DNA from: Candidatus Scalindua sp.
Lineage (GTDB): Bacteria > Planctomycetota > Brocadiia > Brocadiales > Scalinduaceae
Assembly (NCBI GenBank): GCA_031316235.1
Contig: JALDRA010000002.1
Span: 60,001 to 92,000, forward strand
Reading direction: 5' to 3'
Length of the DNA stretch: 32,000 bases
In this document: positions 3,964 to 31,467 of the stretch, piece by piece
Layout of the letters: each line of letters starts with the position of its first letter
How positions within the stretch are numbered: position 1 is the stretch's first letter
The notes under the pieces: model-generated
Told to the model about the DNA's origin: nothing
The model's input: only the letters and a program-made list of their open reading frames with translations
Database searches by the model: none
Translations under genes and position numbers: made by a program

Positions 3964-4105
3964 TATGCTAAAGGACCGATTTGGTTTTAGATTTTTCTAG
4001 AGAACCAAACTGGATGCAGTTATCCCCCGGGCAAAAAGCGCCGAGGACTTTACTCGCTCAGCTTTTTTCTCTGATTTATCCGAAAATTATTATAAGATGA
4101 GTATA
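3964..4105 (+). repeat. TATAC-element copy A (long form, 5' terminus degenerate), in the dnaJ-grpE intergenic region
   Basis: Aligns over its whole length to copies at 14268, 15601(rc), 22501(rc), 25923 and 30066. Shared blocks are GGTTTTAGATTTTTCTA, TATCCCCCGGGCAAAAAGCGCCGAGGACTTTACTC and ATTATAAGATGAGTATA. Confidence 0.85.
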
Positions 4106-5572: not shown

Positions 5573-7195
5573 CTAACAAACGCTTCCCTCGACATAGTTG
5601 TCTTCATCTTCGCCTTCCTTTAAATCCGTAATCATTACCTCTGTTGTCAACATCAGACCTGCTATGCTTGCCGCATTCTGTAAAGCGGTACGGGTAACCT
5701 TTGCAGGATCTATTATTCCTTTAGCAAACATATCTACATATTCACACGTATTGGCATCAAACCCGATGTTGGCATCTTTTTCCTTCACCTCTTCCACAAC
5801 CACCGGACCATCTTCTCCTGCATTTGACACAATCTGTCGTAATGGTGCCTCAATGGCTTTGGCTATGATGTCTGCACCAATTTTCTCGTCTCCTCTGAGT
5901 TTTTTCCGCAGCTCTTCCAACTTTGGGATTGCCCGTATATATGCAGTTCCTCCACCGACAACAATTCCCTCTTCAACTGCCGCCCTGGTAGCGTGAAGTG
6001 CATCTTCGACCAAGGCCTTTCTCTCATTTACTTCTGCCTCAGTGGCACCTCCGACATTTATTACAGCAACACCACCGGTCAGTTTCGCAAGTCTTTCCTG
6101 AAATTTTTCTTTATCATAGTCAGATGAACTCTGTTCTATTTGATTCTTTATCTGCGAAATTCTCCCCTGCACATCAGCCTTCTTTCCGGCACCCTCAATT
6201 ATCGTAGTGTTGTCCTTGCTGATTACGACTCGCTTTGCAGTTCCGAGGTCACTCAGCTCAAGGCTTTCTAATTTTACCCCGAGGTCTTCTGAAATAAGAC
6301 GTCCTTTGGTAAGTATGGCAATATCCTCGAGCATGGCTTTTCTTCGATCACCGAAACCGGGAGCCTTTACGGCAGCACAGTTTATGACACCACGCAATTT
6401 ATTAACTACTAAAGTAGCCAATGCCTCACCTTCAACCTCCTCTGAAATGATCAGAAGAGATTTGCCCGCTCCCGCTATTTTCTCTAAAAGAGGAAGGAGT
6501 TCCTTCATGCTGGCAATCTTTTTTTCATGAATTAAAATATACGGGTCATCAAAAATAACTTCCATAGTCTGTGCATTGGTCACAAAATACGGAGAAATAA
6601 AGCCCTTGTCAAACTGCATTCCCTCAACAACATCTAATGTCGTTTCTATGCCTTTGGCTTCTTCAACCGTAATAACCCCGTCTTTCCCTACCTTATCCAT
6701 TGCATCAGCCAGGAGATTACCCACCGAGGCATTATTATTGGCAGAAATAGTTCCAACCTGTGCAATATGTGATCTGTCTTTGACCTTCTTGCTGGCATTT
6801 TTTATTGCCTCAACCACTTCAATTACGGCCTTGTCGATACCCCTCTTTAAAGCCATAGGATTTGCGCCGGCAGCAACTGCTTTTGCCCCTACATTAAAAA
6901 TTGCTTCGGCTAAAATAGTTGCCGTTGTTGTGCCATCTCCTGCCACATCACTGGTCTTCGAAGCAACTTCGCACACCATCTTTGCACCCATATTCTCAAA
7001 CGGGTCTATAAGAGTTACCTCTTTTGCAACCGACACACCGTCTTTTGTTACTGTTGGTGATCCAAAACTCTTCTCTAAAATCACATTTCTACCGGTAGGA
7101 CCCATTGTCACCCTAACAGCATCAGCCATTTTCTTAATCCCGTTTCGTATGTTTCTCCGTGCATCTTCACTGAATAAGAGCTGTTTTGCAGCCAT
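5573..7195 (-). CDS. groEL: Chaperonin GroEL paralogue lacking the GGM tail (ends ...[17 protein letters not shown])
   Basis: 540 aa, with canonical Cpn60 sequence along its length ([15 protein letters not shown]...AA.EEGIV.GGG). Confidence 0.95.
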
Positions 7196-7215
7196 AGTAA
7201 AACCTCCTGAATGTA

Positions 7216-7503
7216 TTAGTCAATTTTCGCCAAGATATCGCTTTCCTTAATAATGAGATATTCTTTCCCGTTAACGGTTATTTCTGTTCCTGCGTACTTC
7301 CCATAAAGAACCTGATCTCCCTTTTTAACCAGGAGCGCAGCTCTCTGACCATTATCCAAGAGTTTCCCATCTCCGATGGCTATCACCTTACCTTTTGTAG
7401 GTTTTTCCTTTGCTGAATCAGGCAAAACTATACCACCCTTTGTCTTCTCTTCTGCTTCCAAGGGTTCAACAACCACCCTGTCATCTAAAGGCCTAATCGC
7501 CAT
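7216..7503 (-). CDS. groES: Co-chaperonin GroES
   Basis: 95 aa. The sequence [41 protein letters not shown] is typical Cpn10. It ends 20 nt upstream of the groEL paralogue. Confidence 0.95.
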
Positions 7504-7564
7504 AATAATTTTCTCCTTCTATAAAATAAACATAATAAATAACATGATAAACAGCACTCGTTTT

Positions 7565-9247
7565 TTACATTCCCATGCCCGGCATGCCACCCATGCCGCC
7601 CATGCCGCCCATGCCACCCATGCCGCCTGGAGGCATTCCACCACCCGGAGGCATCATCGGCTCATCCTTACCTGGAACTTCTGTGATCAGGCAATCACAT
7701 GTCAGCAGTATCCCTGCAATACTTAAGGCATTCTGCAGAGCACACCTGGTAACTTTTGCAGGATCTATAACACCAGATTCGTAAAGATTACCATACTCTT
7801 CCTTTTCCGCATCATAACCAAATGCGTCATCTTTAGAGTTCAGAATCTTTCGCATGACCACGGTACCTTCAAGTCCGGCATTTTTAACAATTTGTTTCAA
7901 TGGAGCGCTGAGCGACTTCTTTATTATGTCAACGCCAATCTTTTCATCACCCTTCAGCTTAAGGGTATTCAACACCTCTGATGCCCTTAATAATGCTACA
8001 CCGCCACCAGGCAAAACACCTTCTTCGATTGCAGCACGGGTAGCGTGTAACGCATCCTCTACGCGTGCCTTCTTCTCCTTCATTTCAGTCTCGGTTGTTG
8101 CACCGATATTTATTTGTGCAACCCCGCCTGCCAGCTTTGCCAGCCTTTCCTGCAGCTTTTCTCTGTCATAATCAGAAGTAGTTTCACCTATCTCCATCCT
8201 GATCTGACTGATACGGCTTTTAACAGCATCAGATTTCCCGCCGCCCTGAACTATTATGGTGTTCTCAGAATCTATATTAATCTTCTTCGCTGTCCCAAGA
8301 TCGCTTAACTGTATATTTTCCAGCTGGATACCTAAATCTTTAAATACGGCCTTTGCACCAGTAAGAATTGCTATATCCTCCATCATAGCTTTCCTGCGAT
8401 CGCCATAACCCGGCGCCTTAACAGCAGCACAAGATACCGTTCCCCGAAGGTTGTTGACAACCAGGGTAGCCAATGCTTCCCCCTCAACATCCTCAGACAT
8501 AATCAGAAGCGGCCGCTTGGACTTCGCAATTTTTTCAAGTAAAGGAACAATCCCTTTAATAGTTGAAATCTTTTCCTCATGGATAAGAACATAGGCATCC
8601 TTCAGCTCTACCTTCATATTTTCTTTATCCGTGACAAAGCCTGAAGACAAATATCCACGATCAAACTGCATACCTTCAACTATCTCAACCTCGGTATTGA
8701 GACTCTTGCCCTCTTCAACGGTAATAACACCATCTTTCCCTACCTTGTCCATAGCGTTGGCAATCATCTTACCCGCTTCACTATCATTATTAGCAGCGAT
8801 AGTACCGATGTTGGTAATATCCTTCTGATCTTTAACCGGCTTGCTCATCTGCTTCAACTTTTCCACTACTTTATCCACCGCCACCTTCATCCCTCGGTTA
8901 AGTGCCACAGGGTTGGCACCCGCAGTGATACACTTTAACCCGTTATTAAGAATAGCCTCGGCTAAAATTGTAGCGGTAGTAGTTCCATCTCCGGCAACAT
9001 CACTGGTCTTGGAAGAAACTTCCCTTACCAGCTTTGCTCCCAGATTTTCGTAAGGATCTTTCAACTCTACCTCTTCTGCAACGGTCACCCCATCTTTTGT
9101 TATCGTTGGACTGCCCCATCCTTTATCAAGAACCGCATTCCTCCCCCTCGGACCCAATGTGGTCTTTACTGCACGCGCCAATTTAGAGACACCTCTCTTT
9201 ATTGCCAGCCGTGCGTCTTCGTTAAATGCCAACTGCTTTGCTGCCAT
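7565..9247 (-). CDS. groEL: Chaperonin GroEL with a canonical Gly-Gly-Met C-terminal tail
   Basis: 560 aa of Cpn60 sequence ending in [28 protein letters not shown]. It lies upstream of groES, separated by 61 nt with no terminator seen. Confidence 0.95.
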
Positions 9248-9524: not shown

Positions 9525-10208
9525 TTATCTTTTTTTACCGCCGGCAGGATTACCGGTTAATCTTCGAACGTATACGTTGTTTGCAATATCCTTATCCAGT
9601 GCCAGCTGTGTTTCTCCAAACTGGATGACGATGCTGGGGTATTTTTGATGAACCGTCAGTTCCAATCCCGGAATAACTCCGATAGAGGAAAGTCTATCCA
9701 GACTTGCATGTTGTCGCGTTGTAATATAAGCGACCTTGGCCCGTTCACCAGCTTTCAATTTCGACAACGGGCTTACCACGGATTCCAGGGCTTTCTTCGC
9801 ACCCAGACAGCAATCTCCCGGAGGAATCTTTTTCCCATGCGGACACACAACAGGGTGACCAAGTAACGTGCAGATGCTCGCAATAATTTCTTCATTTACA
9901 AAGTGTTCAAATTGACAAGCCCCGCTTTCAAGCACATCATCACCAATCTCAAGTACGTCATTCATTAAGCGTTCAGCTATACGGTGACGCCTGATAATTC
10001 GCTGTGCACGGTCTCTCCCTGTTTCAGTCAGAACAATCTGAGTACCATCAAGATAAATTAATTTTTTCTTATCCATGATATCGAGGAATTTTCCAGCAAT
10101 TGTGCATCCGAACTTTTCATCCATGTATGTCCGCTTCACGTTACCGTGATCCTCTTCCGCCATCCAGATAGACTCTAAAAGCTCTTCAATTTGTATTTCA
10201 TCAGACAT
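9525..10208 (-). CDS. DtxR/MntR-family metal-dependent transcriptional regulator with a C-terminal FeoA (SH3-like) domain
   Basis: HRIAERLMNDVLEIG and CPHGKKIP are DtxR-family motifs. The C-terminal LKAGERAKV...GVIPGLELTV is FeoA-like. I place the start at ATG 10208 because AAGAGGAG lies 8 nt upstream. The longest ORF starts at GTG 10238. Confidence 0.8.
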   Translation of the reverse strand: MSDEIQIEELLESIWMAEEDHGNVKRTYMDEKFGCTIAGKFLDIMDKKKLIYLDGTQIVLTETGRDRAQRIIRRHRIAERLMNDVLEIGDDVLESGACQFEHFVNEEIIASICTLLGHPVVCPHGKKIPPGDCCLGAKKALESVVSPLSKLKAGERAKVAYITTRQHASLDRLSSIGVIPGLELTVHQKYPSIVIQFGETQLALDKDIANNVYVRRLTGNPAGGKKR

Positions 10209-10262
10209 ACAGAAAATTCTCCTCTTAAAAAAATTCACAAATTACACAAAAATGCCCCATGG

Positions 10263-10276
10263 TATACTCATCTCAG
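10263..10276 (-). repeat. Partial TATAC-element terminus (3'-end fragment only)
   Basis: TATACTCATCTCAG matches the reverse-complemented 3' terminus of the element (compare TATACTCATCTCAT at 22501). The adjacent sequence no longer aligns. Confidence 0.4.
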
Positions 10277-10333
10277 ACTTCACGAGAACAAAACGCGGTG
10301 TTTATCCCTGGAACCTGAGCTGCGAAGACATAA

Positions 10334-12877
10334 TCACTCCGGAAAAACACTATTGATACATCTTGTAAATTCCACAAAATCAATTGGCTTATTAACAACA
10401 AAGTCCACCTTTAACTCCTCTCTTTCTGCATCCCGGATCTTGAAGCTCCAACCAGTAATAATACCCACCTTTGGTCTTGTACTCAAGGTATCAAGAAATT
10501 CAATAACGTCTCTTCCAGTCACATCCGGCATAACCAGACCACACAGAACAAGGTCAAAACTTTCATTTTCCAACGACTTAATCGCCTCTCGACCACAGCA
10601 GACACTTTTAGCATAATGCCCCCTGGAGGTCAAAAACTCAGATAAAAATTCGCAGATGTATTGCTCATCATCTACCACCAGGACACGCAGATGATCTGCT
10701 TTTATCTCCTGCATCGGTTTTTGTACGTTTTCACGATCTGAGGGCCTGGATATGGGTATGCAGATGGTAAAGGTACTGCCACTCCCCAGCTCACTCTCCA
10801 CCTCTATCCGGCCTCCATGCCTTTTTATTATGGCAAAAGCGGAACTCAGCCCCAGACCGCTTCCCTCAGGCTGCCTGGTGGAAAAAAAGGGATCAAACAC
10901 CTTCTTCTGTATGTTTCCACACATTCCCTGCCCGGTATCAGCAATGCTTATAAACAAATTGCCATACTCCTTCCACGTGCGCAACGAAAGAGTACCGCCA
11001 TCAGGCATTGCATCTAATGCGTTATTTATTATATTTGTAAATACCTCCCTTAACTCAGAAGGGTTACCCATTGTACGTGGTACTGCCCTGACGCCTTTCA
11101 GATCTATGCAGTAGATTATCCCGCTGGCCAGGGCCATATTCTTCCATCTCGGCATGGTAAAATCAATTACCTTCTTTACCAGTGCCCTTATGTCTACCGG
11201 CGTCAACTTTGAAGGATCTTTCTTTAAATTGGTAAAATCCTGCATCCTCTGCACTATACCGGCACCATCATTCGCAGCATCAATAATGATTTGAATCCCC
11301 TTCTCCAGCTTTTTATAGTCACCCCTGGGTCTTTTTTTTAATAATTGCGCAAACCCCAGGATTATGGCAAGAATATTATTAAATTCATGGGCAATGCCGG
11401 CAGTCATTACCCCCATGGCTGCTAACTTCTCTGATTGCATCAGTGCGGCTTCCACCTGTTTACGTTCAGTAATGTCTTCCGCAATTCCTTCTACGGCAAT
11501 AACGTTATTATCCTTGTCAAAAACCGGAACCTCCTGAACATTCAAAATCCGTATCGATCCGTCCTTGTGGTAGATCTCCACAGGGTAAGCAGGTTGTTTT
11601 ATCCCTTGAATGCTGAGCCCGGTATAACGTATCACTTTCTCATTGATTGAATTGTCTGTAAGATATTCAGTATAATGGGTAAGAAATTCACTCTGTGTGT
11701 AACCGAGAATATTAGTGATTGAAGAGCTGAGAAAGGTAAAGACACCCTCTTTATTGTGAGAGTAGAAAAAGTAGCTGTCCTGAAGATTTTCTATCAGCCT
11801 TCGATATTTCTGTTCTGACTCGCGTAAAGCATATTCCATCTGCTTCCGCCCGGTTATGTCCGTTGAAATACCACATATCCTGTCAGGAATCCCATATGAG
11901 TCAAAAAGTGGGAATTTTATAGTAATATAGGTGTGTAATTCCTCATCATGAGGAAAAATTTCTTCGAATTCCTGTGGTGTACCTGCATCGAAAACTTTAC
12001 GGTCATTTGCCTGAAGTGTTTCAGCCAGATCTTCCGGGAACAGATCCTTGTCAGTCCTGCCCACAATAGCCTTCCTGCTCACGTGAAACAGTTTTTCGTA
12101 TTGACGGTTTATTACGAGGTATCTCCCCTCTTTGTTTTTGAGATAAATAACAGCAGTGGTGTTATCCAAAATTGATTGCAGTTCATCCTGCGCATCCTTC
12201 AGCAATCTCTCAGCCTTCTTCCGGTTCAGAACCTCAAGACTGAGATTTTTGTTTGTTACCGACAATTCCTCGGTACGCTTTCTTACCCGTTGTTCAAGAG
12301 ATTCGTTGAGTGCAGCAAGTTCATCCTGCATCCGTTTACGCCGGGAGATATCTCGAGCGATACCAACAACACCTGTTATTTCATCTTTTTTATCCCGTAA
12401 TGGAATATTTATATATTCACATAGCAAGCCGGTATCTTTGAAATAGAGTTCATATTGAGGGCTCTCTCCTCTGAGTGTTCTGGTGTAAGCGTCCATCCCT
12501 TTTTCCAGATTCTCCTCATCAAAAAGAGAGGAAAAAGGTTTACCGTAAAATTTTTCGGGTTTGTGCCCGGTAAATTTCTCGAAGACCTTGTTAACATACA
12601 CAATGTTCCCTTTTGTATCACATGCATACGCCAGGTCTGAAATATTATCTATAATTGATTTATACTTTTTTAATTCCTCTTCCATGTAAACAGCACCTGC
12701 ATGGGGTGTCCGCCGCTGGAAACACCTGATTACCCTATTTCTAAAAGTAGTATAATACCGCAATCTTTCTGCGTTAACACTAATAAAATCCTGTGGCATA
12801 TTTTGAGAGAGTAACGGAGGTAAATCCTGATGTGACTTCATTACTGACAGCATAACTATCGCCATCCAGGAAATCAA
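10334..12877 (-). CDS. Hybrid sensor histidine kinase: three PAS domains, HisKA, HATPase_c and a C-terminal receiver-like domain
   Basis: PAS-like repeats separated by a coiled coil; H-box GIAHEFNNILAII; ATPase boxes NIINNALDAM, DTGQGM and GSGLGLS; receiver RVLVVDDE...KP. An alternative start at ATG 12685 (MEEELKKYKS, AGGTG upstream) seems more likely than the longest ORF. Confidence 0.85.
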   Translation of the reverse strand: MISWMAIVMLSVMKSHQDLPPLLSQNMPQDFISVNAERLRYYTTFRNRVIRCFQRRTPHAGAVYMEEELKKYKSIIDNISDLAYACDTKGNIVYVNKVFEKFTGHKPEKFYGKPFSSLFDEENLEKGMDAYTRTLRGESPQYELYFKDTGLLCEYINIPLRDKKDEITGVVGIARDISRRKRMQDELAALNESLEQRVRKRTEELSVTNKNLSLEVLNRKKAERLLKDAQDELQSILDNTTAVIYLKNKEGRYLVINRQYEKLFHVSRKAIVGRTDKDLFPEDLAETLQANDRKVFDAGTPQEFEEIFPHDEELHTYITIKFPLFDSYGIPDRICGISTDITGRKQMEYALRESEQKYRRLIENLQDSYFFYSHNKEGVFTFLSSSITNILGYTQSEFLTHYTEYLTDNSINEKVIRYTGLSIQGIKQPAYPVEIYHKDGSIRILNVQEVPVFDKDNNVIAVEGIAEDITERKQVEAALMQSEKLAAMGVMTAGIAHEFNNILAIILGFAQLLKKRPRGDYKKLEKGIQIIIDAANDGAGIVQRMQDFTNLKKDPSKLTPVDIRALVKKVIDFTMPRWKNMALASGIIYCIDLKGVRAVPRTMGNPSELREVFTNIINNALDAMPDGGTLSLRTWKEYGNLFISIADTGQGMCGNIQKKVFDPFFSTRQPEGSGLGLSSAFAIIKRHGGRIEVESELGSGSTFTICIPISRPSDRENVQKPMQEIKADHLRVLVVDDEQYICEFLSEFLTSRGHYAKSVCCGREAIKSLENESFDLVLCGLVMPDVTGRDVIEFLDTLSTRPKVGIITGWSFKIRDAEREELKVDFVVNKPIDFVEFTRCINSVFPE

Positions 12878-12938
12878 TCCGTCCTGTGACTGCTTTTGTG
12901 GATCGGGATAAAAAGTTGAAATCTTTTACTGGTTTCAG

Positions 12939-13350
12939 CTAATCCTGCTCCAGCATCAAAACCCTTTTTTCCTGTTCTAGTAACTTTTCCCGGCTTCTCT
13001 TCCCCTGAATACTTCTGAATTGTTCCAGTTTTGTCAGGTTAGTCCTAATCATTTCCTCTTCTCGTAATTTCTCTTGAAACTCACCTGATCGAGATCCTCC
13101 TTTTTCGTCAACCCTTCATACAACTCCTGTTCCTGTTGCGTAAGAATACGAATTTGAGCGGAATCTTCATTCCGCAAATTCTCACTTCCTGTTCGATCAT
13201 GTTCTACTCCATTACTCGTCTGTTCAGCCGCTTCCCGCCCTCATCCCCTGATTTCTCATGCTGAAGATACATGGAGAAAGTAATGAGGAGCCACATTACC
13301 GCAATTCCCGTAAGTCCCAGAACCAATCTACTCACTCTTTTCATTGCCAT
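12939..13350 (-). pseudogene. Possible frameshifted gene for a small signal-anchored coiled-coil (LTxxQ-like, Spy/CpxP-type) protein
   Basis: Three consecutive reverse-strand frames read coherently. (1) MAMKRVSRLVLGLTGIAVMWLLITFSMYLQHEKSGDE. (2) EAAEQTS...SAQIRILTQQEQELYEGLTKK. (3) GGSRSGEFQEKLREEEMIRTNLTKLEQFRSIQGKRSREKLLEQEKRVLMLEQD, followed by a stop. The frame changes lie near G/A homopolymer runs. Confidence 0.25.
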
Positions 13351-13867: not shown

Positions 13868-13951
13868 TATACTAAAACCAGAGCCTGGTTAATGGTAGAC
13901 TCGCTCAATTTTTTCCCGATTTTGTCCGAAATCCAGTATGAGATGAGTATA
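13868..13951 (+). repeat. TATAC-element copy K (84 bp, central module deleted)
   Basis: TATACTAAAACCAGAGCCTGGTTAATGGTA is joined directly to GACTCGCTCAATTTTTTCCCGATTTTGTCCGAAATCCAGTATGAGATGAGTATA. Both termini and the flanking modules are retained. Confidence 0.8.
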
Positions 13952-14043
13952 GTATCATTTCATAGTAATTTTTTACCTGAGATTACTGGAAGGCAGCCAT
14001 TCTGAAATTTATTCCCATTCTTACAATCGGGGAGTGATTAAAA

Positions 14044-14163: not shown

Positions 14164-14267
14164 GCAGTGTTTGAACGATAACTACCCATTCTGCGGCGTT
14201 GCTGCAATAATGGCGTAATCCTCACGTACCTGAGTACGCTCCGGTTACGTAATTATTTCGGACCTTG

Positions 14268-14437
14268 TATACTAAAACCGATCTGGTTTTCGGTTTTACC
14301 CGTCCCCGCCAGAATGAGTATCACCTGCCGGAAATCAAATCCTGGTGAAGGTATCCCCGAACAAAAAGCGTGCCGGGGACTTTACCCACTCAGTTTTTTT
14401 CCGGATTTTATCCGAAAACCATCATACGATGAGTATG
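14268..14437 (+). repeat. TATAC-element copy B (170 bp, carries a 44-bp internal replacement)
   Basis: Termini are TATACTAAAACCGATCTGGTTTTCGGTTTT and GGTATCCCCGAACAAAAAGCGTGCCGGGGACTTTACCC...CCGAAAACCATCATACGATGAGTAT. The segment 14298-14341 is not found in other copies. Confidence 0.85.
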
Positions 14438-15538: not shown

Positions 15539-15600
15539 AACAGAACGAACTGCCAATTTTTCATAGTACCACTATACGGCAAAAGCTGAAATAAGAATAA

Positions 15601-15738
15601 ATACTCATCTCATGCTGGATTTCGGAAAAAATCCGAAAAAAAACGGAGCGGGGAAAGTCCTCGACGTCTTGTCCGGGGATACCACTAACAAGACTTTGGT
15701 TTTTAGAAAAATCTAAAAAACAGATCGGTTTTCGTATA
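15601..15738 (-). repeat. TATAC-element copy C (long form), between the ABC ATPase and permease genes
   Basis: The reverse complement reads TATACGAAAACCGATCTGTTTTTTAGATTTTTCTAAAAACCAAAGTCTTGTTAGTGGTATCCCCGGACAAGACGTCGAGGACTTTCCCC...CCGAAATCCAGCATGAGATGAGTAT. Confidence 0.85.
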
Positions 15739-21320: not shown

Positions 21321-21474
21321 TTATCAGCTATGAGCCCTGAACCTCTGAACCTTGAACCCAGAACCTCTAAACGCTTAACCCTGAACCCAGTACCCAGAAC
21401 CTCTGAACCCGGAACCCTGAACCTCTGAACCTCTGAACCCTGAACCCTGAACCCTGAACCTCTAAACGCTTACC
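21321..21474 (+). repeat. Degenerate heptanucleotide tandem array (CCCTGAA / CCTCTGAA / CCCAGAA units, about 20 units)
   Basis: Read directly from the sequence, for example CCCTGAA CCTCTGAA CCTTGAA CCCAGAA CCTCTAAA CGCTTAA CCCTGAA. It contains the motif CCTCTAAACGCTTA twice, and the same motif occurs in the 25.8-kb array. Confidence 0.9.
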
Positions 21475-22260: not shown

Positions 22261-22289
22261 TATACTCATATTGTAATGGTTTTTGTATA
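22261..22289 (-). repeat. Minimal 29-bp TATAC-element (copy J)
   Basis: The reverse complement is TATACAAAAACCATTACAATATGAGTATA, which is the 5' terminus of the long element fused to its 3' terminus. Confidence 0.8.
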
Positions 22290-22440
22290 TCACGCCACGG
22301 CGCTAAGAACGCAAAGAATAAAAACATTTAAAATCTTTTATACTCAACTTTTTCTCCAAAATAGTAGACGCATCAACCACAACCATGCCTATTTCATTTT
22401 CTGGCGATCTCTGCGGCTTTGCGAGAAGCTATTTTTTTGA
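22290..22440 (-). pseudogene. Decayed remnant of a four-helix-bundle (23S rRNA IVS protein / Avd family) gene
   Basis: The reverse complement aligns with 25533-25650 (ATCAAAAAA..TCTCGCAAAGCCGCAGAGATCGC....GGTTGTGGTTGATG.GTCTA.T.TTT). It then jumps to the TTTGCGTTCTT.GCG...GGCGTGATATAC block that lies at 25896-25927 in the longer copy. Confidence 0.55.
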
Positions 22441-22500
22441 TATAAAACAATTCAAGCAAACCCCTGCACTGAAATTCCAAAAACCATTTTGCAATGGGTA

Positions 22501-22640
22501 TATACTCATCTCATAATGGTTTTCGGATAAAATCCGAGATAAAATTGAGCGGGTACAAGTCCTCGACACTTTTTGTCCGGGGATACCTTCACCAAGATCT
22601 GGTTTCCAGCAAAACCGAAAACCAGATCGGTTTTAGTATA
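22501..22640 (-). repeat. TATAC-element copy D (long form, subfamily 2)
   Basis: The reverse complement is TATACTAAAACCGATCTGGTTTTCGGTTTTGCTGGAAACCAGATCTTGGTGAAGGTATCCCCGGACAAAAAGTGTCGAGGACTTGTACCC...TCGGATTTTATCCGAAAACCATTATGAGATGAGTATA. Confidence 0.9.
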
Positions 22641-23240: not shown

Positions 23241-24470
23241 ATGACTATCGGTTGCAGCACAATGAAATACGATTTCGATCGTCTGATCTCACGGAAAAAC
23301 ACGGGCTGTATGAAGTGGGACGGTGCAAAGGCTCTCTTTGGTAATACGGATGTCATTCCAATGTGGGTAGCCGATATGGATATTCCTATTGCTCATCCCA
23401 TCACCGAAGCAATGAAAGAGAGAGTGGAACACAACATCTTTGGTTATCCGGTGCATCATCCTGAATCTGTCATGGAATCCATTATATATAGAATGCAGAA
23501 ATTGTACAGTTGGCAGATTCTGCCGGAATGGATTGTTTTTACACCCGGTATTATCCCGGCACTCTACACCTCGGTTCGGGCTTTTTCTCGCCCGGGAGAT
23601 GACGTTATTCTTCAGGGGCCAGTTTATCACCCCTTCTGGTCAGCCATCAGGGATAATGGGTGCCATGTATCTGAGAACCGTCTCTTACTCAATGATTCAC
23701 ACTATGAAATTGATTTTGATGATCTGAAAACCAAGTTTGGTACAAGAAGCGGCAGGCCCTCCGCACCTTCACGTGCACGTTTACTGATTTTATGTAGTCC
23801 ACACAACCCGGTAGGTCGGGTATGGACCGAAGAGGAGCTGACAAAGATCGGAGAAATTATCACAGGAAACGGAGCAATCATAGTTTCAGATGAAGTACAC
23901 AGTGAACTTCTCTTTCGTGATGCCAGACATACGCCGATTGCTTCATTATCTGAGGAATTTGAGCAAAATTCCATTACGTGCATTTCTCCAAGCAAGACCT
24001 TCAACCTTGCCGGATTATATGCATCAGCCATAATTATTCCTAACGCCAGATATCGCAGGAAATTCCAAGAGGCCCGCAAAGGGATTGTACCGGGACCGAA
24101 TGTATTCGGATTAACAGCAATGGAGGCCGCGTATAAACATGGAGACGAATGGCTGGAACAATTATTGGTATATCTGAACAGTAATCTGGAATATTTACTC
24201 GACTATTTTGAGAGGAGAATCCCTGCAATAAGGGTTATCAAACCAGAGGGGACCTACCTGGTATGGTTAGATTGCCGTAAACTGGGATTCGTCCCCGAAG
24301 ACCTGAAAAAATTCCTGACAAATGATGCAGAAGTTGGCCTTGATGAAGGCTCCCTTTTCGGACCAGGTGGTGCCGGTTTTGCGAGGATGAATATTGCCTG
24401 CCCCCGTTCAATTTTGACAGAAGCATTGAAGAGGTTAGAGTCTGCGGTTACTAGACTGAAACCATTATAA
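23241..24470 (+). CDS. PatB/MalY-type PLP-dependent C-S lyase (class I/II aminotransferase fold)
   Basis: MKYDFDRLISRKNTGCMKWDG is the typical N-terminus. Other matches are SPHNPVGRVW and the PLP-lysine region SPSKTFNLAG. The start may be ATG 23262 rather than 23241. Confidence 0.85.
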   Translation: MTIGCSTMKYDFDRLISRKNTGCMKWDGAKALFGNTDVIPMWVADMDIPIAHPITEAMKERVEHNIFGYPVHHPESVMESIIYRMQKLYSWQILPEWIVFTPGIIPALYTSVRAFSRPGDDVILQGPVYHPFWSAIRDNGCHVSENRLLLNDSHYEIDFDDLKTKFGTRSGRPSAPSRARLLILCSPHNPVGRVWTEEELTKIGEIITGNGAIIVSDEVHSELLFRDARHTPIASLSEEFEQNSITCISPSKTFNLAGLYASAIIIPNARYRRKFQEARKGIVPGPNVFGLTAMEAAYKHGDEWLEQLLVYLNSNLEYLLDYFERRIPAIRVIKPEGTYLVWLDCRKLGFVPEDLKKFLTNDAEVGLDEGSLFGPGGAGFARMNIACPRSILTEALKRLESAVTRLKPL

Positions 24471-24480
24471 GATGAGTATA
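24459..24480 (+). repeat. Solo 3' terminus of a TATAC-element, overlapping the C-S lyase stop codon
   Basis: AAACCATTATAAGATGAGTATA is identical to the 3' end of the copies at 4084-4105 and 26012-26033. The TAA at 24468-24470 is the gene's stop codon. Confidence 0.7.
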
Positions 24481-25346: not shown

Positions 25347-25500
25347 AGTACACTCCTTATGCAGATAATTTTTTAAAATGTAATCGGAATCTCTCTTGCT
25401 CCGAATATACGATTAGAACACATTATTACAATATTTCAATAATTATTTCAGATGTTCATAAATCTCGCGACTTAATATGCCAGGAACAATTAAATCCTTG

Positions 25501-25529
25501 TATACGAAAACCATTATCTGATGAGTATA
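25501..25529 (+). repeat. Minimal 29-bp TATAC-element (copy H)
   Basis: TATACGAAAACCATTATCTGATGAGTATA, flanked by G and C to give GTATAC palindromes at both ends. Confidence 0.8.
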
Positions 25530-25532
25530 CAT

Positions 25533-25753
25533 CAAAAAAGAGTCTCTCGCAAAGCCGCAGAGATCGCAAGGAAGAATGAATGAAAATGAAACAGGCAGGG
25601 TTGTGGTTGATGAGTCTATTGTTTCATATAATATTTTACAAAAAGAATTGGATCTCCAATTCAAAGCTTAATGATTTACGAATAGTAGGAGATACAATAG
25701 GTAAACAACTTTCAAGTCTCATAAATTCAATAAAGAAAACAATTACGAAATAA
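25533..25753 (+). pseudogene. 5'-truncated, frameshifted remnant of a four-helix-bundle (23S rRNA IVS protein / Avd family) gene
   Basis: The frames read IKKESLAKPQRSQGRMNENETGRVVVDESIVSYNILQKELDLQFKA, then (shifted) LNDLRIVGDTIGKQLSSLINSIKKTITK followed by a stop. The last 9 codons match the end of the ORF at 30991-31215 (AATTCAATAAAGAAAACAAT[T/C]ACGAAATAA, one synonymous difference). Confidence 0.55.
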
Positions 25754-25884
25754 CCCTGAACCATCAGCCATGAGCTATGAGCTATGAGCCATCAGCCATA
25801 AGCCATGAACCATCAGCCATCAACCCTGAACCTCTGAACTCAGAACCTTTGAACCTCTAAACGCTTAACCATGAACCATCAGCC
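25754..25884 (+). repeat. Degenerate heptanucleotide tandem array (CCATCAG / CCATGAG / CTATGAG / CCCTGAA units)
   Basis: Read directly from the sequence. It starts immediately after the pseudogene stop codon and contains CCTCTAAACGCTTAA, as the 21.4-kb array does. Confidence 0.9.
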
Positions 25885-25922: not shown

Positions 25923-26033
25923 TATACTAAAAACCAAAGCCCGGCTGCTGGTATCCCCGGACCAGGCACCGAGGACTTTACTCTCTCCGTTTCTCCTCGG
26001 ATTTGGTCCGAAAACCATTATAAGATGAGTATA
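25923..26033 (+). repeat. TATAC-element copy E (111 bp, first hairpin module absent)
   Basis: TATACTAAAAACCAAAGCCCGGCTGCTGGTATCCCCGGACCAGGCACCGAGGACTTTACTC...TCGGATTTGGTCCGAAAACCATTATAAGATGAGTATA. Confidence 0.9.
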
Positions 26034-26144
26034 CTACCCGGATACAAGGCAAGTAACAATTTCATATCTGAAATACACCCATGTACCTGAAGACTGCTGG
26101 GTAATTACAGGAACGCAGTAAATGGATAGTTTTCGTTACACTTA

Positions 26145-29100
26145 CTAATTAGCGTCATATAGCACTTCATTAGAATAACCACTTTCATTACCGGAACTGT
26201 TATAAGCAGTTACTGCAAGGTAATACGTTACGCCGCTTACAAGATCAGACAAGTCATATGTCGTTTGATTACCCACATCAATAATATCGTCATAATTGCT
26301 GCTTGAAATCCCATAGTATACTTTATAACCAGCAATGTCTTCCTCCGTGTTTTCATCCCAGGCAAGTATATCTGAATTCGTATCTAATACCGTTATCGTT
26401 ACATCCTGATAATCGGTTAATTCACCATCACTGACAGTGACTGTGACGGTATGGCCACCGGCGTCTTGAGCAGTTGTTGTGTAAGCACTTGAAGTCATCC
26501 AGCCGGAATAGGTATATGTCAGCGGATCATCATCCGGATCTGAGGCTGTGGGATTAAGGGTTATGGTCACTCCTTCGTTTACTACAATAGAGGGTATTGC
26601 GTCAAGTACCGGAGCACGATTTATGTTAGTAACCGTTACTGTAACAGACTGAGAATCCGATGCTGAACCGTCACTGACCGTTACCGTTACGGTATGATCA
26701 CCCGCATCATTATAAGAGGTCGTGTAACTTGCAGAAGTCATCCACCCGGAATAGCTGAATGCCAGCGCATCGCCATCAGGATCTGTTGCCGTAGGATTAA
26801 AGGTCACCGTATCACCCTCATTCACCGTGATATTGGTTAATGGATCCAGCACAGGCGCATTGTTCAATCCAGCCTCTTCCTGCTCTACTATTACAACGGT
26901 ATACATGCTCTTCCCGGCACCTTCATTACCACCCAGTGTAATCGTCCCTGAAATCACATTACTCGCATATAAGCTTAAGGTTGTATCCGTTGTTACAAGG
27001 TCTTCACCTATGTCAGTATAGGAGGATTCCAACCAGGATGGTTTCGGAGTTATGCGGTCATCATGAGCAACATACACGATAACGTCCTTATTGACATCAA
27101 AACTCAAAAATGATGAAGAGCTGGAGGCCTTGTCGTTGTTTGCCGTCTTGATGTAGGTGACACCTTCCATCCATACGGGTATTGCACTATAGGTATATCC
27201 ACGGTCAATGTATACCAATCCACCCTTCTGTAATCCATTTTCAACGATCTCATAGGCCTGGTTACTTGAGACAGTAAGGTTGGTAACAGATAGATCTGGT
27301 TCTGGTGTTATGTCCACATTGTTGACCGTTACCGTAACAGACTGAGAATCTGATGCTGCTCCGTCGCTGACGGTTACTGTTACGATATGATCCCCCGCAT
27401 CATCATAAGAGGTGCCATAACTTGCAGAGGTCATCCACCCGGAATAACTGAAGGTCAATGGGTCTCCGTCTGGATCGCTGGCTGTCGGGGCAAGAGTTAC
27501 CGTATCACCCTCATTTACCGTAACAGCCGTAAGATGGGCAAGTACCGGTGCCTGGTTAACATTGTTGACCGTTACCGTAACAGACTGGGTATCTGATGCT
27601 GTCCCGTCACTGACCGTTACCGTCACCGCATGATCACCCGCATCATTATAAGAGGTCGTGTAACTTGCAGAAGTCATCCACCCGGAATAGCTGAAGGTCA
27701 ATGGGTCTCCGTCTGGATCGCTGGCTGTCGGGGTAAGGGTTACCGTATCACCTTCATTAACCGTGATACCAGCTATATGATCCAATAGAGGAGCGGCATT
27801 CACATGAGCCATAACGTCAACTACCGTTATTGTTACGTCCTGAGAATCGATTGAAGCACCATCACTTACGGTTACTGTTACTGTGTGAGTTCCTGCATCG
27901 TTATAATTAGTTGTATAGCTCCTTGAAGTCATCCAGCCGGAATAACTGAAGGTCAAAGCGTCTCCATCTGGATCAGCAGCTGTAGGGGTAAGGGTTACCG
28001 TATCACCTTCTTCAACAATTACAACATTTTCCAGATCCTGTGCAACAAAAGATACTTCACCAGAGTAAATACTTTCATTACCTGATGAATCGTATGCGGT
28101 CACTGCCGCATAATAGGTTTCACCACTTATGAGACCAGAAAAGAGACAGTATGTCTGAATTCCAACATCAGTATGAGAACCATAATTTCCGCTTGCAGTC
28201 CCATAGTAAACTTTATAACCGGCAAGATCCTCTTCATTGTTAGGATCCCAAAACAATGTACCTTGAATATCTCCGCCAGTTCCAGAAATCGGATTGAGAA
28301 CAGGTGCACGATTAACATTATTCACCGTTATCGTAACAACCTGGGAATCTGATGCTGTCCCGTCACTGACCGTTACTGTCACAGTATGATCACCCGCATC
28401 ATCATAAGAGGTCGTGTAACTTGCAGAGGTCATCCACCCGGAATAGCTGAAGGTCAGGGTGTCTCCGTCTGCATCCGTTGCTGTCGGGGCAAGGGTCACC
28501 GTATCTCCCTCATTTACCATAACAGGCGAGAGAGTGGAAAGTACCGGTGCCTGGTTAACATTATTCACCGTTATCGTAACAACCTGGGTATCTGATGCTG
28601 TACCGTCACTGACTGTTACGGTCACAGCGTGATCACCCGCATCATCATGAGTTGTTGTGTAACTTGCAGAGGTCATCCACCCGGAATAGCTGAAGGTCAG
28701 GGTGTCTCCGTCTGCATCCGTTGCTGTCGGGGCAAGGGTCACCGTATCTCCCTCATTTACCGTAATCCCACTTAATGGATCCAGCACGGGTGCATTGTTC
28801 ACTTCCGCCACTTCCTGCCCTACTATTACGAAGGTATACATGCTCTTCCCGGAACCTTCATTACCACCAAGAGTAATGGTTCCTGAAATCACATTACTCG
28901 CATATAAGCTTAAGGTTGTATCCGTTGTTACAAGGTTTTCACCTATGTCGGTAAAGGAGGATTTCAACCAGGATGGTTTCGGAGTTATGCGGTCATCATG
29001 AGCAACATACACGATAACATCCTTATTGACATCAAAACTCAAAAATGATGAAGAGTTTGAAGATTTGTCGTTGTTTGCCGTATTGATGTAGGTGGCACCT

Positions 29101-29891
29101 TCCAGCCATACCGGTATTGCACTATAGGTATATCCACGGTCAATGTATACCAATCCACCATTCTGTAATCCATTTTCAACGATTTTATAGGCCTTGTTAC
29201 TTGAGACAGTAAGGTTGGTAACAGAAACATTTGGCACTGGCGTGATGTCCGCATCATTAACCGTTATCGTTATACTTTCCGAATCTGTCTCTTTACTGTC
29301 ACTTACGTGAAAGGTTACATTAGAATATGTTCCTGCCTGACTATAGGTTGGCGTCCATGAAAATGTTCTGCTGTTTTCATCAAAGCTCGCACCACTGGGG
29401 AGATTGCTTGCCGTATAAGCAAGTGTATCTCCTTCTGGATCTGTAGCGGAAATAATCAAGTTTAATGCCTGGTTTTCATTAACAGTTTTATTGCCGATCG
29501 CTGTTAATACCGGGGGAGAGTTAACTGATGTCAGATCGTTATAAACCACCTCATTAGAGTAAGTGCTTTCATTACCGGAGAAATCGTATGCCGTTACTGC
29601 CAGATAATAATCATTCCCGTCTCCAAGACCCGTAAGTGTGTAACTGGTCTGATTACCAACATCTTCATGAGAATTATAATTCCCACTTGACGTTCCGTAG
29701 TGTACTTTATAACCGGCAAGGTCATCTTCACTGTTTGGGTCCCATAATAACATATCAGCTTGCGCCGAACACAAATTGGATGTATTGATCAAAATCGCAA
29801 GGGTTAGTACGACAAAGGATATGATAGTGGAAATGGAGCAACGAAAATGGAGTGTTCTTGCAAGTTGCGATAAGACATTTTTTTGTGACAT
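26145..29891 (-). CDS. Large secreted repeat protein: 3 FN3-like modules, 8 cadherin-like/He_PIG-type Ig modules, and 2 copies of a ~150-aa uncharacterised beta-sandwich-like module
   Basis: 1248 aa with an N-terminal signal-like segment. FN3 pattern: WDPN.E.DLAGYKV.YG...YY.AVTAYD.SGNES.YS.EV. Cadherin-like pattern: VNEGDTVTL.PTA.D.DGD.LTFSYSGWMTS.SYTT...DAGDH.VTVTVSDG. No recognisable C-terminal anchor. Confidence 0.9.
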   Translation of the reverse strand: MSQKNVLSQLARTLHFRCSISTIISFVVLTLAILINTSNLCSAQADMLLWDPNSEDDLAGYKVHYGTSSGNYNSHEDVGNQTSYTLTGLGDGNDYYLAVTAYDFSGNESTYSNEVVYNDLTSVNSPPVLTAIGNKTVNENQALNLIISATDPEGDTLAYTASNLPSGASFDENSRTFSWTPTYSQAGTYSNVTFHVSDSKETDSESITITVNDADITPVPNVSVTNLTVSSNKAYKIVENGLQNGGLVYIDRGYTYSAIPVWLEGATYINTANNDKSSNSSSFLSFDVNKDVIVYVAHDDRITPKPSWLKSSFTDIGENLVTTDTTLSLYASNVISGTITLGGNEGSGKSMYTFVIVGQEVAEVNNAPVLDPLSGITVNEGDTVTLAPTATDADGDTLTFSYSGWMTSASYTTTHDDAGDHAVTVTVSDGTASDTQVVTITVNNVNQAPVLSTLSPVMVNEGDTVTLAPTATDADGDTLTFSYSGWMTSASYTTSYDDAGDHTVTVTVSDGTASDSQVVTITVNNVNRAPVLNPISGTGGDIQGTLFWDPNNEEDLAGYKVYYGTASGNYGSHTDVGIQTYCLFSGLISGETYYAAVTAYDSSGNESIYSGEVSFVAQDLENVVIVEEGDTVTLTPTAADPDGDALTFSYSGWMTSRSYTTNYNDAGTHTVTVTVSDGASIDSQDVTITVVDVMAHVNAAPLLDHIAGITVNEGDTVTLTPTASDPDGDPLTFSYSGWMTSASYTTSYNDAGDHAVTVTVSDGTASDTQSVTVTVNNVNQAPVLAHLTAVTVNEGDTVTLAPTASDPDGDPLTFSYSGWMTSASYGTSYDDAGDHIVTVTVSDGAASDSQSVTVTVNNVDITPEPDLSVTNLTVSSNQAYEIVENGLQKGGLVYIDRGYTYSAIPVWMEGVTYIKTANNDKASSSSSFLSFDVNKDVIVYVAHDDRITPKPSWLESSYTDIGEDLVTTDTTLSLYASNVISGTITLGGNEGAGKSMYTVVIVEQEEAGLNNAPVLDPLTNITVNEGDTVTFNPTATDPDGDALAFSYSGWMTSASYTTSYNDAGDHTVTVTVSDGSASDSQSVTVTVTNINRAPVLDAIPSIVVNEGVTITLNPTASDPDDDPLTYTYSGWMTSSAYTTTAQDAGGHTVTVTVSDGELTDYQDVTITVLDTNSDILAWDENTEEDIAGYKVYYGISSSNYDDIIDVGNQTTYDLSDLVSGVTYYLAVTAYNSSGNESGYSNEVLYDAN

Positions 29892-29892
29892 G

Positions 29893-29942
29893 ACAGTATC
29901 TCCTATTTGTAGCCCAGCAACGACAGGTTAAAGAGATACTGT
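29893..29942 (-). promoter_or_regulatory. Hairpin that sequesters the Shine-Dalgarno sequence in the 5' leader of the large surface-protein gene
   Basis: A perfect 10-bp inverted repeat, 29893-29902 with 29933-29942. In the mRNA it reads ACAGUAUCUC, a 30-nt loop, then (G)GAGAUACUGU-C-AUG. The GGAGA ribosome-binding site forms the 3' arm. Confidence 0.45.
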
Positions 29943-30065
29943 ATTGCCTGGCAGCTTTGCAACCGTATCCTAAAATAGAGGACGTAGGCCTAAGTTTTGC
30001 GTCCTGCCCTTTCGAACAGTTTGCCTTTTTCAGGTTTTTATTAGATTTTTGTTATTTCTCAGTTA

Positions 30066-30206
30066 TATACTAACACCAATCTGGTTTTAGATTTTTCTAA
30101 AAACCAAAGCCTGGTTAATGGTATCCCCGGACAACCAGGTGCCGAGGACTTTACTCATTCCGTTTTTTCTCGGATTTTATTTGAAATCCATTATATGACG
30201 AGTATA
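30066..30206 (+). repeat. TATAC-element copy F (141 bp, best-preserved subfamily-1 copy)
   Basis: TATACTAACACCAATCTGGTTTTAGATTTTTCTAAAAACCAAAGCCTGGTTAATGGTATCCCCGGACAACCAGGTGCCGAGGACTTTACTCATTCCGTTTTTTCTCGGATTTTATTTGAAATCCATTATATGACGAGTATA. Confidence 0.9.
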
Positions 30207-30726
30207 AATTCGTTTTCATGTCTCGTAGCATAAGTTGTTAACGTTACGCAAATGTAATGCCTCAACAAAACTTACCGTGACAAGTATATAATTGTTCTTG
30301 AAGAGATACCGTGTGGTGGAACAAAGACTTTCCAGATACAAGGCGCGTAATAATTTGATAACCTGAAGTTAATCATGTGCTTGAGGATACTGGAATTAAT
30401 AACGCAGCGCAGTAAATGGATCCTTTTCGTTCAAGCACTATAGAAAACAGCTGATCAAATAAACATTTTAACAGCACATTTATTTGTTACTAAATATAGA
30501 GGGTAAGTTGATTTTATAAACACCATGATGCTTTATTAGTTATTGCCGCTTGGTTTTTGTCTTATAGCGGTAAGAAAATATTTAATGCTTAAAAACTTTG
30601 GTTACCTGGTATTATCGTGACAATCCCAAAAATCATTAGCAAGAAAATAACAAACTTCAAGATCAAAGAGTTCAGCAGTTAACGGATGTTGAAGGATTCA
30701 GGATAGAGTTGAATGCTCACAGGATG

Positions 30727-30755
30727 TGTACGAAAACCATTATCCGATGAGTATA
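30727..30755 (+). repeat. Minimal 29-bp TATAC-element (copy I)
   Basis: TGTACGAAAACCATTATCCGATGAGTATA, differing from copy H at only 2 positions. Confidence 0.75.
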
Positions 30756-30950
30756 AAACTCACAATGACATGATTTGTTTCGATATACCCATTGTGAATT
30801 ACACCGGTAAAAAATAAGTTTTGGGAAAAACTCAATTGCTGGTGCGGGCAGAGTGGTAAACCAGAGACGTCCCTTCAAACTCTATAGCAGCCGGTAACAC
30901 AGTCCGTTTTATCAGAAAAATTTAAAAACATTCATTCGCAGATTACACAG

Positions 30951-30990
30951 AGCTCATGGTTGATAGCTCATAGTTCATAGCTGATGGTTA
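30951..30990 (-). repeat. Heptamer array in inverted orientation, abutting the start of the four-helix-bundle ORF
   Basis: The reverse complement reads CCATCAT TAACCAT CAGCTAT GAACTAT GAGCTAT CAACCAT GAGCT, the same unit family as 25754-25884 and 31216-31350. Confidence 0.75.
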
Positions 30991-31215: not shown

Positions 31216-31350
31216 TTATCAACCATCAGCCATCAACCATAAACTTCTGAAGGCTGAACGCTTAAACATAAACCATAAACCATGAGCCCTGAGCCATCAG
31301 CCATCAGCCATCAGCCATGAACCATGAGCTTTAATCTTTGAGCCTTTGGC
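31216..31350 (+). repeat. Degenerate heptanucleotide tandem array immediately after the four-helix-bundle ORF
   Basis: TTATCAA CCATCAG CCATCAA CCATAAA ... CCATGAG CCCTGAG CCATCAG CCATCAG CCATCAG CCATGAA CCATGAG, read directly from the sequence. Confidence 0.9.
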
Positions 31351-31404
31351 TTTGTTTGTTTTTATACTTTTTAGATTTGACCCATTGCCCTTTCAGCCTT
31401 TAAC

Positions 31405-31467
31405 TATGCCATGAGCTATGATCCATCAGCCATCAGCCATGAACCATCAGCCATGAACCATGAACCA
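31405..31467 (+). repeat. Second downstream heptamer array
   Basis: CCATGAG CTATGAT CCATCAG CCATCAG CCATGAA CCATCAG CCATGAA CCATGAA. It is preceded by TTTGACC...CCTTTCAG, the same leader seen before the 21.3-kb array. Confidence 0.85.

Follow-up and report, generated by a model that had tools for sequence, protein, structure and literature searches.

MITEs were characterized by Delihas (2008) as non-coding elements of about 100–300 bp that possess terminal inverted repeats and produce a target-site duplication. They are also A+T-rich, have 5'-TA-3' termini and occur in many dispersed copies; a matching autonomous IS is desirable and not obligatory (PMC2229807). Targeting of the dinucleotide TA together with its duplication is the defining behaviour of the IS630/Tc1-mariner group (PMC2170065). 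In ISY100 the inverted repeats are imperfect and 24 bp long, and about 30 bp of each end is enough (PMC2170065). IS630-family transposases were reported in the anammox genomes of Kuenenia and Brocadia (PMC7814187), which makes a putative partner of this kind plausible in Scalindua as well.

Here we describe a ~140-nt element of Candidatus Scalindua sp. that agrees with the characterization of MITEs in its size and lack of coding capacity, its inverted repeats, its target duplication, its copy number, and its A+T-rich composition with TA termini. We consider it to be a TA-duplicating MITE, that is, a non-autonomous cut-and-paste DNA transposon, with a probability of roughly 0.8.

Seven long copies of the element are present in the window, by which we mean the whole stretch of 32,000 nucleotides that was analyzed. 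All seven had been listed in the first-pass annotation and were re-found in the same places by nhmmer with a profile built from these very copies (E 5e-42 to 2e-15), and de novo repeat finding in the window recovered the element as five repeat families (D6, D7, D9, D17 and D19). A degenerate 23-nt pattern of the 3'-end core, GAAAWCCANYATNNGATGAGTAT, gave seven matches in the window versus 0.00 in 100 dinucleotide-preserving shuffles. The seven-copy profile additionally picked up short forms at 25499–25529 and 30720–30754 and a fragment at 24458–24479. The copies, their remnants and one related element are as follows:

3964..4105 (+): full-length copy of 142 nt in the dnaJ-grpE spacer, with the degenerate left terminus TATGC (nhmmer E=4.4e-36)
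10263..10278 (-): terminal fragment of the right inverted repeat, 13–16 nt (TATACTCATCTCA...), in the spacer between the DtxR and histidine kinase genes (sequence inspection)
13868..13951 (+): internally deleted copy of 84 nt, both termini present, without hairpin 1 and module B (nhmmer E=1.6e-15, aligned to profile positions 32–140)
14268..14437 (+): long copy of 170 nt with a nested GC-rich hairpin in the loop of hairpin 1 (nhmmer E=1.7e-39)
15600..15738 (-): full-length copy of 139 nt between the ABC ATPase gene and the next gene (nhmmer E=2.2e-39)
22261..22502 (no strand assigned): sister-family (fam3-type) MITE of 242 nt with ends TATACTCATATTGTAATGGTTTTTG ... CAAAAACCATTTTGCAATGGGTATA (right end 87% match to fam3)
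22501..22640 (-): full-length copy of 140 nt (nhmmer E=4.1e-41)
24458..24480 (+): fragment of the right terminal inverted repeat (nhmmer E=0.015)
25501..25529 (+): solo right terminal inverted repeat CGAAAACCATTATCTGATGAGTA with TA on its flanks (profile and termini searches)
25923..26033 (+): copy of 111 nt without the 5' arm of hairpin 1 (nhmmer E=4.8e-32)
30066..30206 (+): focal full-length copy of 141 nt, module B class (nhmmer E=5.4e-42)
30727..30755 (+): solo right terminal inverted repeat (profile and termini searches)

The copy at 14268–14437 adjoins a copy of another MITE, fam2 (14166–14269), and the copy at 22501–22640 adjoins the sister-family element at 22261–22502, one TA being common to both (GGGTA-TA-TACTC). 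In the 25923–26033 copy the 5' arm of hairpin 1 was removed by a deletion between AAAACC repeats. The fragment at 10263–10278 was missed by the profile; by our estimate, the expected number of exact 13-nt end matches in 64 kb is about 0.001. Copies of the ~140-nt element were also found within fam2 and fam4 MITEs.

The consensus proposed in the first-pass annotation proved essentially right, the copy density that it gave, about one in 3 kb, is confirmed, and the terminal fragments that it placed at 10263 and 24459 are both pieces of the right inverted repeat. Its list of 29-bp minimal forms has to be revised. There are indeed short forms at 25501 and 30727, but they are solo right inverted repeats, and what was listed at 22261 belongs to the separate 242-nt sister-family element, as its left inverted repeat. 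The claim that every copy is intergenic is valid for the copies, but not for the fragment at 24458–24480, the only one not fully intergenic, which overlaps the final ~13 nt of an ORF. The family occupies 1,024 nt of the window, and all MITE families together account for 1,646 of its 7,849 intergenic nt (21%).

As had been observed before, no transposase is encoded in the window among the ORFs scanned. GrpE of the window has 100% identity to a protein from a Candidatus Scalindua sp. MAG. The genes named by Pfam include grpE, dnaJ, two groEL, a DtxR/FeoA regulator, a PAS histidine kinase, an ABC ATPase, an H+-pyrophosphatase, rsfS, an FKBP isomerase and a 1,248-aa adhesin with Big_9, PKD and cadherin domains. 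The single Rfam family in the window is a c-di-GMP-I riboswitch at 29947–30035 on the minus strand, ahead of the adhesin gene, and the focal copy at 30066–30206 sits 30 nt upstream of it. Copies so close to a regulatory RNA could change the expression of neighbouring genes. In the syntenic ENA assembly L134, conservation covers the orthologous riboswitch together with about 25 nt on its upstream side, and the focal copy is missing. Since the region further upstream is rearranged in L134, only the absence of the focal copy can be stated, and an exact empty site for it in this assembly was rejected.

The ends of the ~140-nt element form a bipartite terminal inverted repeat of 26 nt, TATACT-N11-GGTTTTCGG. 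The left end, TATACTAAAACCGATTTGGTTTTCGG, and the reverse complement of the right end, TATACTCATCTCATAATGGTTTTCGG, are identical at 18 of the 26 positions; the imperfect 9-nt inverted repeat described initially is thus really this longer, bipartite structure. The 113-nt core begins with TATACTAAAACC GATTTGGTTTTCGG TTTTA and continues after TTTTA with CCGGAAACCAAATC TTGGTTGCAGTTATACTCGCTCAATTTTATCT CGGATTTTATCCG AAAACCATTATGAGATGAGTATA. The length of the copies ranges from 57 to 235 nt with modes at 113 and 139, and size classes of about 57, 113, 132–139, 143, 162–170, 194 and 223–235 nt can be distinguished. The larger classes consist of the core with one or more of three additions, which are module B and, in the loops of hairpin 1 and of the 3' hairpin, GC-rich hairpins. 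Module B is 27 nt long (CCCCGGAC...GAGGACTTT) and is restricted to the ~140-nt element. The smaller forms display deletions between three AAAACC repeats, and the 57-nt forms comprise nothing but the two inverted repeats.

Comparison of 124 copies revealed that the left and right repeats are highly conserved (0.961 and 0.968, respectively, with gaps below 1%), while the interior is more variable (0.909, gaps 15%). The left repeat was absent from the pattern used for fetching the copies, and its conservation is therefore free of selection bias. At least 112 of 122 copies have TA at each of their two ends, and the consensus contains no stop-free stretch of more than 42 codons. The G+C content is 34% in the core and 40% in the 139-nt form, as compared with 42% in the window. 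The sister family fam3, with a length of about 185 nt, has its own near-perfect repeats, TATACCCATCACAAATTGGTTTTCGG, which are identical to the right end of the ~140-nt element at 22 of 26 positions. In total, the shared inverted repeat is borne by at least four element types, including the element at 22261–22502 in the window.

The distribution of the element was studied by scanning one genome per species with the 3' pattern, which yielded at least 120 stretches with a total length of about 0.94 Mb. Among these, 115 belonged to four MAGs of the family Scalinduaceae (SCAELEC01, RBC_AMX3, CBDCUS01 and MFD09964). The five other stretches came from unrelated phyla and had no match to the profile; because of this, and because about four chance matches were estimated from the degeneracy of the pattern, we regard them as chance matches. 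The profile gave at least 163 matches in the collected stretches, at least 123 of them full-length. In the sampled parts of three MAGs there were at least 81, at least 60 and at least 20 matches, and nine in the window set. More copies were revealed in Scalindua AMX11, in L134 and in metagenome contigs, so that, besides these contigs, no fewer than six genomes or assemblies of Scalinduaceae carry the element. No genuine copy outside Scalinduaceae was seen among the matches listed, and viral contigs contained no matches to the element. The many copies beyond the window demonstrate a dispersed family rather than a local duplication artefact. The element had not been recognized initially as a named REP, MITE or Rfam family, and indeed no named family was found in Rfam or in the searchable literature; full-text literature searches likewise returned no descriptions of Scalindua MITEs.

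Filled and empty sites were compared, as recommended in the first-pass annotation. A BLAST comparison of the joined 60-nt flanks, made for 124 copies against all DNA in the analysis, revealed seven insertion sites with an uninterrupted homologue. Six of the seven empty sites had exactly TA at the point where removal of the TATAC..GTATA block leaves a 2-nt gap, and one had TT or TTG instead. Several of these sites lie inside other repeat families that have dozens of empty paralogues, and two are orthologous gene spacers, which were compared base by base with the grpE neighbourhoods of three other Scalindua genomes (L123, L125 and L126). The dnaJ-grpE spacer is filled in the window (181 nt) and empty in all three. 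Without the element it is about 41 nt long in L123 and L126, the difference is bounded exactly by TATAC...GTATA, and L123 has a single TA at the insertion point. Conversely, the spacer between grpE and the Zn-ribbon gene holds the element in L126, but not in the window, L123 or L125. The element is polymorphic in its presence between these genomes, with both orthologous and paralogous pairs of sites demonstrating the TA duplication. From the single TA at the six empty sites it follows that TA is the target and is duplicated, and that the element proper is TAC...GTA. The immediate flanks show only a mild preference for A at -1 and T at +1 and no other conserved upstream motif.

Of the natures suggested in the first-pass annotation, that of a non-autonomous mobile element is favoured by the TA duplication at filled versus empty sites, by 26-nt repeats common to the sister family and by the genus-wide dispersal of the copies. 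A point against it is the identity of only 18/26 between the left and right repeats. The MITE inserts into TA in AT-rich intergenic DNA, and duplication of this TA creates the TATAC...GTATA ends noted initially. Since the element encodes nothing, its mobilization would have to occur in trans, by a DDE transposase that recognizes the inverted repeats, each made up of a terminal TA-TACT box and an inner TGGTTTTCGG box. The size classes are subfamilies which originated in deletions between the internal AAAACC repeats and in the nesting of GC-rich mini-hairpins in two hairpin loops, amplification by transposition following.

As to the mobilizing enzyme, we infer from the target that an IS630-type transposase is somewhat favoured, the IS630/Tc1-mariner type being the most probable one because this family targets and duplicates TA. 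The 57-nt forms with their two repeats fit the ~30-bp end requirement of ISY100. About 1 Mb of Scalindua DNA contained no autonomous element with these inverted repeats: there was no transposase between or inward of repeat pairs with termini 0.3–5 kb apart, and none inward of unpaired ends. An IS630-type ORF was likewise absent from this DNA. A metagenome scan with the shared inverted repeat (seven loci) yielded another MITE subfamily and one chance match and no autonomous partner. Two candidate partners were rejected. A ~1-kb intragenomic repeat turned out to be an HNH/nucleotidyltransferase cassette, and a 2.45-kb IS that lies in L134 by the window's solo repeat is unrelated, since its repeats are different, TAGCACTACAGCGACA, and its ORF is of the DDE_5 plus DruA-like type.

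A duplication of 2 bp is also produced by some IS30 and IS5 (IS427-group) elements, so that it is the TA specificity alone that points to IS630. IS30 and some IS5-group elements make 2–3-bp duplications in AT-rich targets, and a transposase of the IS30 family or of the IS5/IS427-ISL2 group might move the MITE instead. This agrees with the length of the duplication and with the fact that a regular expression for the IS630 catalytic motif found no match in the ~1 Mb of Scalindua DNA. We nevertheless regard such an enzyme as unlikely, given that TA itself was duplicated at six of the seven sites, that the flanks have a mild A..T preference and not a YTAR motif or a long palindromic hotspot, and that strict TA targeting and duplication define IS630/Tc1-mariner (PMC2170065).

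The hairpins of the element raise the question of whether the copies are genes or cis-acting modules of small structured RNAs (sRNA, riboswitch-like RNA or ribozyme), the hairpins being functional RNA helices. A single sequence does fold better than its shuffles (z -3.75 and -3.35 on the two strands), a four-hairpin model pairs 90% of cells versus 20–48% with slid partners, the hairpin 1 alleles CGG..CCG and AGA..TCT look compensatory, and the focal copy lies beside a riboswitch. Yet folding is about equal on both strands, the RNAalifold consensus of 37 copies reaches only -7 kcal/mol with a covariation term of 0.02, and the covariation measures of the four-hairpin model were equalled by 48–49 of 500 shuffles. 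The strand favoured by G.U pairs is plus in hairpin 1 and minus in the hairpin of module B, which suggests palindromes of DNA. Rfam gave no match to the element, whether the whole window was searched at the gathering score or the part 29900–30900 at E<=10, promoter- and terminator-like matches did not exceed those in shuffles, no terminator lies inside any copy, and the orthologous riboswitch in L134 lacks the element. The copies had no preferred position relative to genes, and their orientation was unbiased over 100 copies (34 antisense, 29 sense, 23 divergent and 14 convergent; eight overlapped ORF calls), and the impression from the window copies that the functional strand is antisense to genes was a matter of chance that vanished over this number. 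The palindromes are real and there is no sign of selection on RNA structure, so the RNA reading offered initially is very improbable. A hammerhead-like core noticed in a solo repeat (GTATAC-GAAA-...-CUGAUGA-GTATAC) was rejected, too: CUGAUGA is missing from most full copies, stems I and III are precluded by the spacing, and no match exists in Rfam.

Two further readings concern other classes of palindromic DNA. The copies might be a REP/BIME-like family, spread by RAYT (HUH Y1) or kept for gyrase or IHF binding or for mRNA stabilization, as had also been suggested. The element is intergenic, hairpin-rich, high-copy and modular, as such a family would be; IS110 elements target REPs, and an IS110-family IS is inserted in one copy. 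At the same time its unit of 113–235 nt is not one of 20–40 nt, it has no conserved GTAG-type 5' tetranucleotide, and what distinguishes a filled from an empty site is precisely the element and one TA. Together with the 26-nt terminal inverted repeats, this target-site duplication is foreign to REP/REPIN and RAYT and makes the REP/BIME reading even less probable than the RNA one. The least probable of all is a PATE derived from IS200/IS605, possibly a leftover scaffold of a TnpB/IscB guide RNA, which would move as ssDNA and insert 3' of a fixed tetra- or pentanucleotide. Subterminal hairpins, a size close to that of omega-RNA scaffolds and GC-rich modules always placed after TTTTA(C), which recalls the TTAC target of IS608, agree with it. 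However, the element ends in inverted repeats, copies lie in either orientation within 32 kb without strand bias, no TnpA(Y1), TnpB or IscB ORF was found near any end in the sampled loci, and a duplication is present, of which IS200/IS605 elements make none. Empty sites hold TA only, and not TATAC or a fixed 4–5-nt target by the left end; for the same reason IS608-like TTAC targeting of the whole element was rejected.

Copies of SCAELEC01, RBC_AMX3 and CBDCUS are about 0.87–0.90 identical, within and between genomes alike, and the nearest neighbour of a copy is often in another genome. The window copies are more diverged, with an identity of 0.78 among themselves. Comparison of the window with L134, in which the FKBP region has 96.6% DNA identity, revealed that the 25923–26033 copy (9276–9405 in L134), the solo repeat 25501–25529 (12937–12967, also solo) and the fragment 24458–24480 (13985–14008) are common to both and thus are old insertions. 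The site of the solo repeat 30727–30755 is occupied in L134 by a complete 112-nt copy (12668–12779), and this solo repeat is therefore a deletion remnant. Given the divergence of the window copies and the three copies or remnants common to L134, current activity of the MITE in the source genome is no more than a possibility.

The GC-rich mini-hairpins deserve separate mention. They are 27–33 nt long, have the structure CCYGYCYG-loop-CRGRCRGG and, in the loops of the ~140-nt element, always directly follow TTTTA. About 38 of them are nested in the element and about 23 were found elsewhere, including the unrelated fam4 MITE; they also occur in other intergenic DNA and nested in one another. It is conceivable, though rather doubtful, that they represent an independent second tier of ultra-small mobile elements that target hairpin tips and build hairpin-in-hairpin composites, spreading possibly via a HUH/RAYT-like or template-switching mechanism. 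Alternatively, they may be passive markers of subfamilies.

Scalindua genomes contain at least four MITE families, which make up about one fifth of the intergenic DNA of the window. Short-read contigs of the window's own strain break off inside the 3964–4105 copy, and such breaks of short-read assemblies inside copies help to explain the fragmented MAGs of uncultured anammox bacteria. The copies are usable as presence/absence markers for the typing of strains and species. They also are landing sites for other mobile DNA: an IS110-family IS is inserted in a copy in L086 (DEDD_Tnp_IS110 1e-23, Transposase_20 6e-15), and a group II intron lies within a copy in L078 (RVT_1 6e-41, GIIM 1e-18).

The ~140-nt element appears to be an undescribed MITE family with sister families in Scalinduaceae and an element of an ordinary kind. 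No new mechanism is involved, TA-duplicating MITEs being familiar since Correia and RUP. With REP, BIME and REPIN it shares an intergenic position, palindromes and high copy number, and its nested 27–33-nt mini-hairpins resemble REP units in size and form, but it differs from them in having terminal inverted repeats and a TA duplication, and no RAYT gene was seen. Like ISY100-type IS630/Tc1-mariner elements, it has TA as a duplicated target and imperfect repeats of ~24–26 bp; in those elements only the terminal ~30 bp are needed in cis (PMC2170065). Those elements are autonomous, ~0.95–1.2 kb long and encode a transposase, whereas the link of the ~140-nt element to them is deduced from its target behaviour. 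RUP of pneumococcus, a ~107-bp MITE, likewise inserts into TA, has subfamilies and is often found in or beside other mobile elements (PMC2229807). Its parent is IS630-Spn1 with matching repeats, whereas no parent was found for the ~140-nt element. The Correia/NEMIS elements of Neisseria are similar in that they are ~100–155 bp long, non-coding and intergenic, have inverted repeats of ~24–26 bp starting with TATA, duplicate TA, form size classes by an internal block and are abundant (PMC2229807). The differences are in the host, which is a member of Planctomycetota here, and in the repeats, which are bipartite and only 18/26 identical. As its sequence is unrelated to those of both Correia/NEMIS and RUP, the ~140-nt element is a member of neither family. 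Finally, an IHF site, outward promoters and processing by RNase III are known from Correia, to whose features nested GC-rich mini-hairpins like those of the ~140-nt element do not belong.

Besides the studied MITE, the repeat of about 140 nt, two further MITE families were distinguished by their own inverted repeats. The second family (fam2) is about 155 nt long, with the inverted repeat TAGTGTTTGAACGAAAAC, and gave 51 BLAST matches longer than 100 nt in the comparison loci, most of which come from Scalinduaceae MAGs. In the window its copies often immediately adjoin copies of the studied MITE. A fourth, fam4, has a length of about 185 nt and the inverted repeat CAGGAAAGAATAACTTGTTGTT; it was confined to the loci, as against the window. 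Copies of fam2 include:

window 1198-1242, 14166-14269, 26037-26137 and 30308-30441
L099 (comparison locus) 1047-1205

GC-rich mini-hairpins of the form CCYGYCYG-loop-CRGRCRGG, 27-33 nt long, make up a further family. About 38 of them are located in loops of the studied MITE, every one preceded by TTTTA, and about 23 elsewhere, including the interior of fam4; some are nested inside each other. They look REP-like and may be able to move independently. Their locations include:

L007 5185-5214, L015 347-374, L094 6921-6948, L013 1783-1819 and others, outside the studied MITE
L035 6573-6741, an example of a studied-MITE copy with nested mini-hairpins
window 14296-14330, a degenerate mini-hairpin

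Larger mobile elements were found in or near MITE copies:

L086 4510-6203, an IS110-family insertion sequence within a studied-MITE copy, at about position 70
L078 390-2605, a split studied-MITE copy with about 2 kb between the halves
L134 (contig of a syntenic relative) 10195-12644, a 2.45-kb insertion sequence without counterpart in the window

The IS110-family transposase (Pfam DEDD_Tnp_IS110 and Transposase_20) is interrupted by a stop codon. The 2 kb within the split copy hold the RT/maturase ORF of a group II intron (with the Pfam domains RVT_1 and GIIM) together with a MITE of the type of fam3, the sister family that shares the inverted repeats of the studied MITE. The L134 element has perfect inverted repeats of about 23 bp (TAGCACTACAGCGACA...), and its ORF of 687 aa joins a DruA-like N-terminal region (9e-35) to a DDE_5 transposase domain (3e-47), which is an unusual fusion. 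Two Logan short-read contigs of the window's own strain (L121 1-91 and L122 1-91) terminate within MITE copy 3964-4105; thus, the studied repeats fragment Scalindua assemblies.

Several other features of the window were noted:

5573-9247 (-), two tandem groEL paralogues
26145-29891 (-), adhesin gene (1,248 aa; Big_9/PKD/cadherin/fn3 domains)
29947-30035 (-), c-di-GMP-I riboswitch (62.3 bits)
21331-21467, 25752-25879, 30951-30989, 31273-31329 and 31408-31467, intergenic tandem arrays of 7-nt units (TGAACCC, CCATCAG, CCATGAG) near MITEs

The riboswitch lies directly 5' of the adhesin gene, and the orthologous adhesin of L134 is also preceded by a c-di-GMP-I riboswitch (71.9 bits), which suggests that a surface adhesin of an anammox planctomycete is under c-di-GMP control. 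Between the groEL paralogues, the upstream of which closes with a GGM-repeat tail (7572-7627), lies a 95-aa ORF (7216-7503); its counterpart at this position in the grpE neighbourhoods of three other Scalindua genomes (L123, L125 and L126) was called as Cpn10 (groES), and all three keep the groEL-ORF-groEL layout.

The array portion 31315-31467 is kept in L134 at 93%. Filamentous cyanobacteria carry similar short heptamers in tandem repetition.

In the 113-nt core of the studied MITE, one reading frame is stop-free (YSSHNGFRIKSEIKLSEY...). From some copies, stop-to-stop open frames extend into downstream genes:

L015 3918
L023 3244 (-)
L110 243 (-)

These candidate coding frames recall the MITE-ORF fusions known for other bacterial MITEs.
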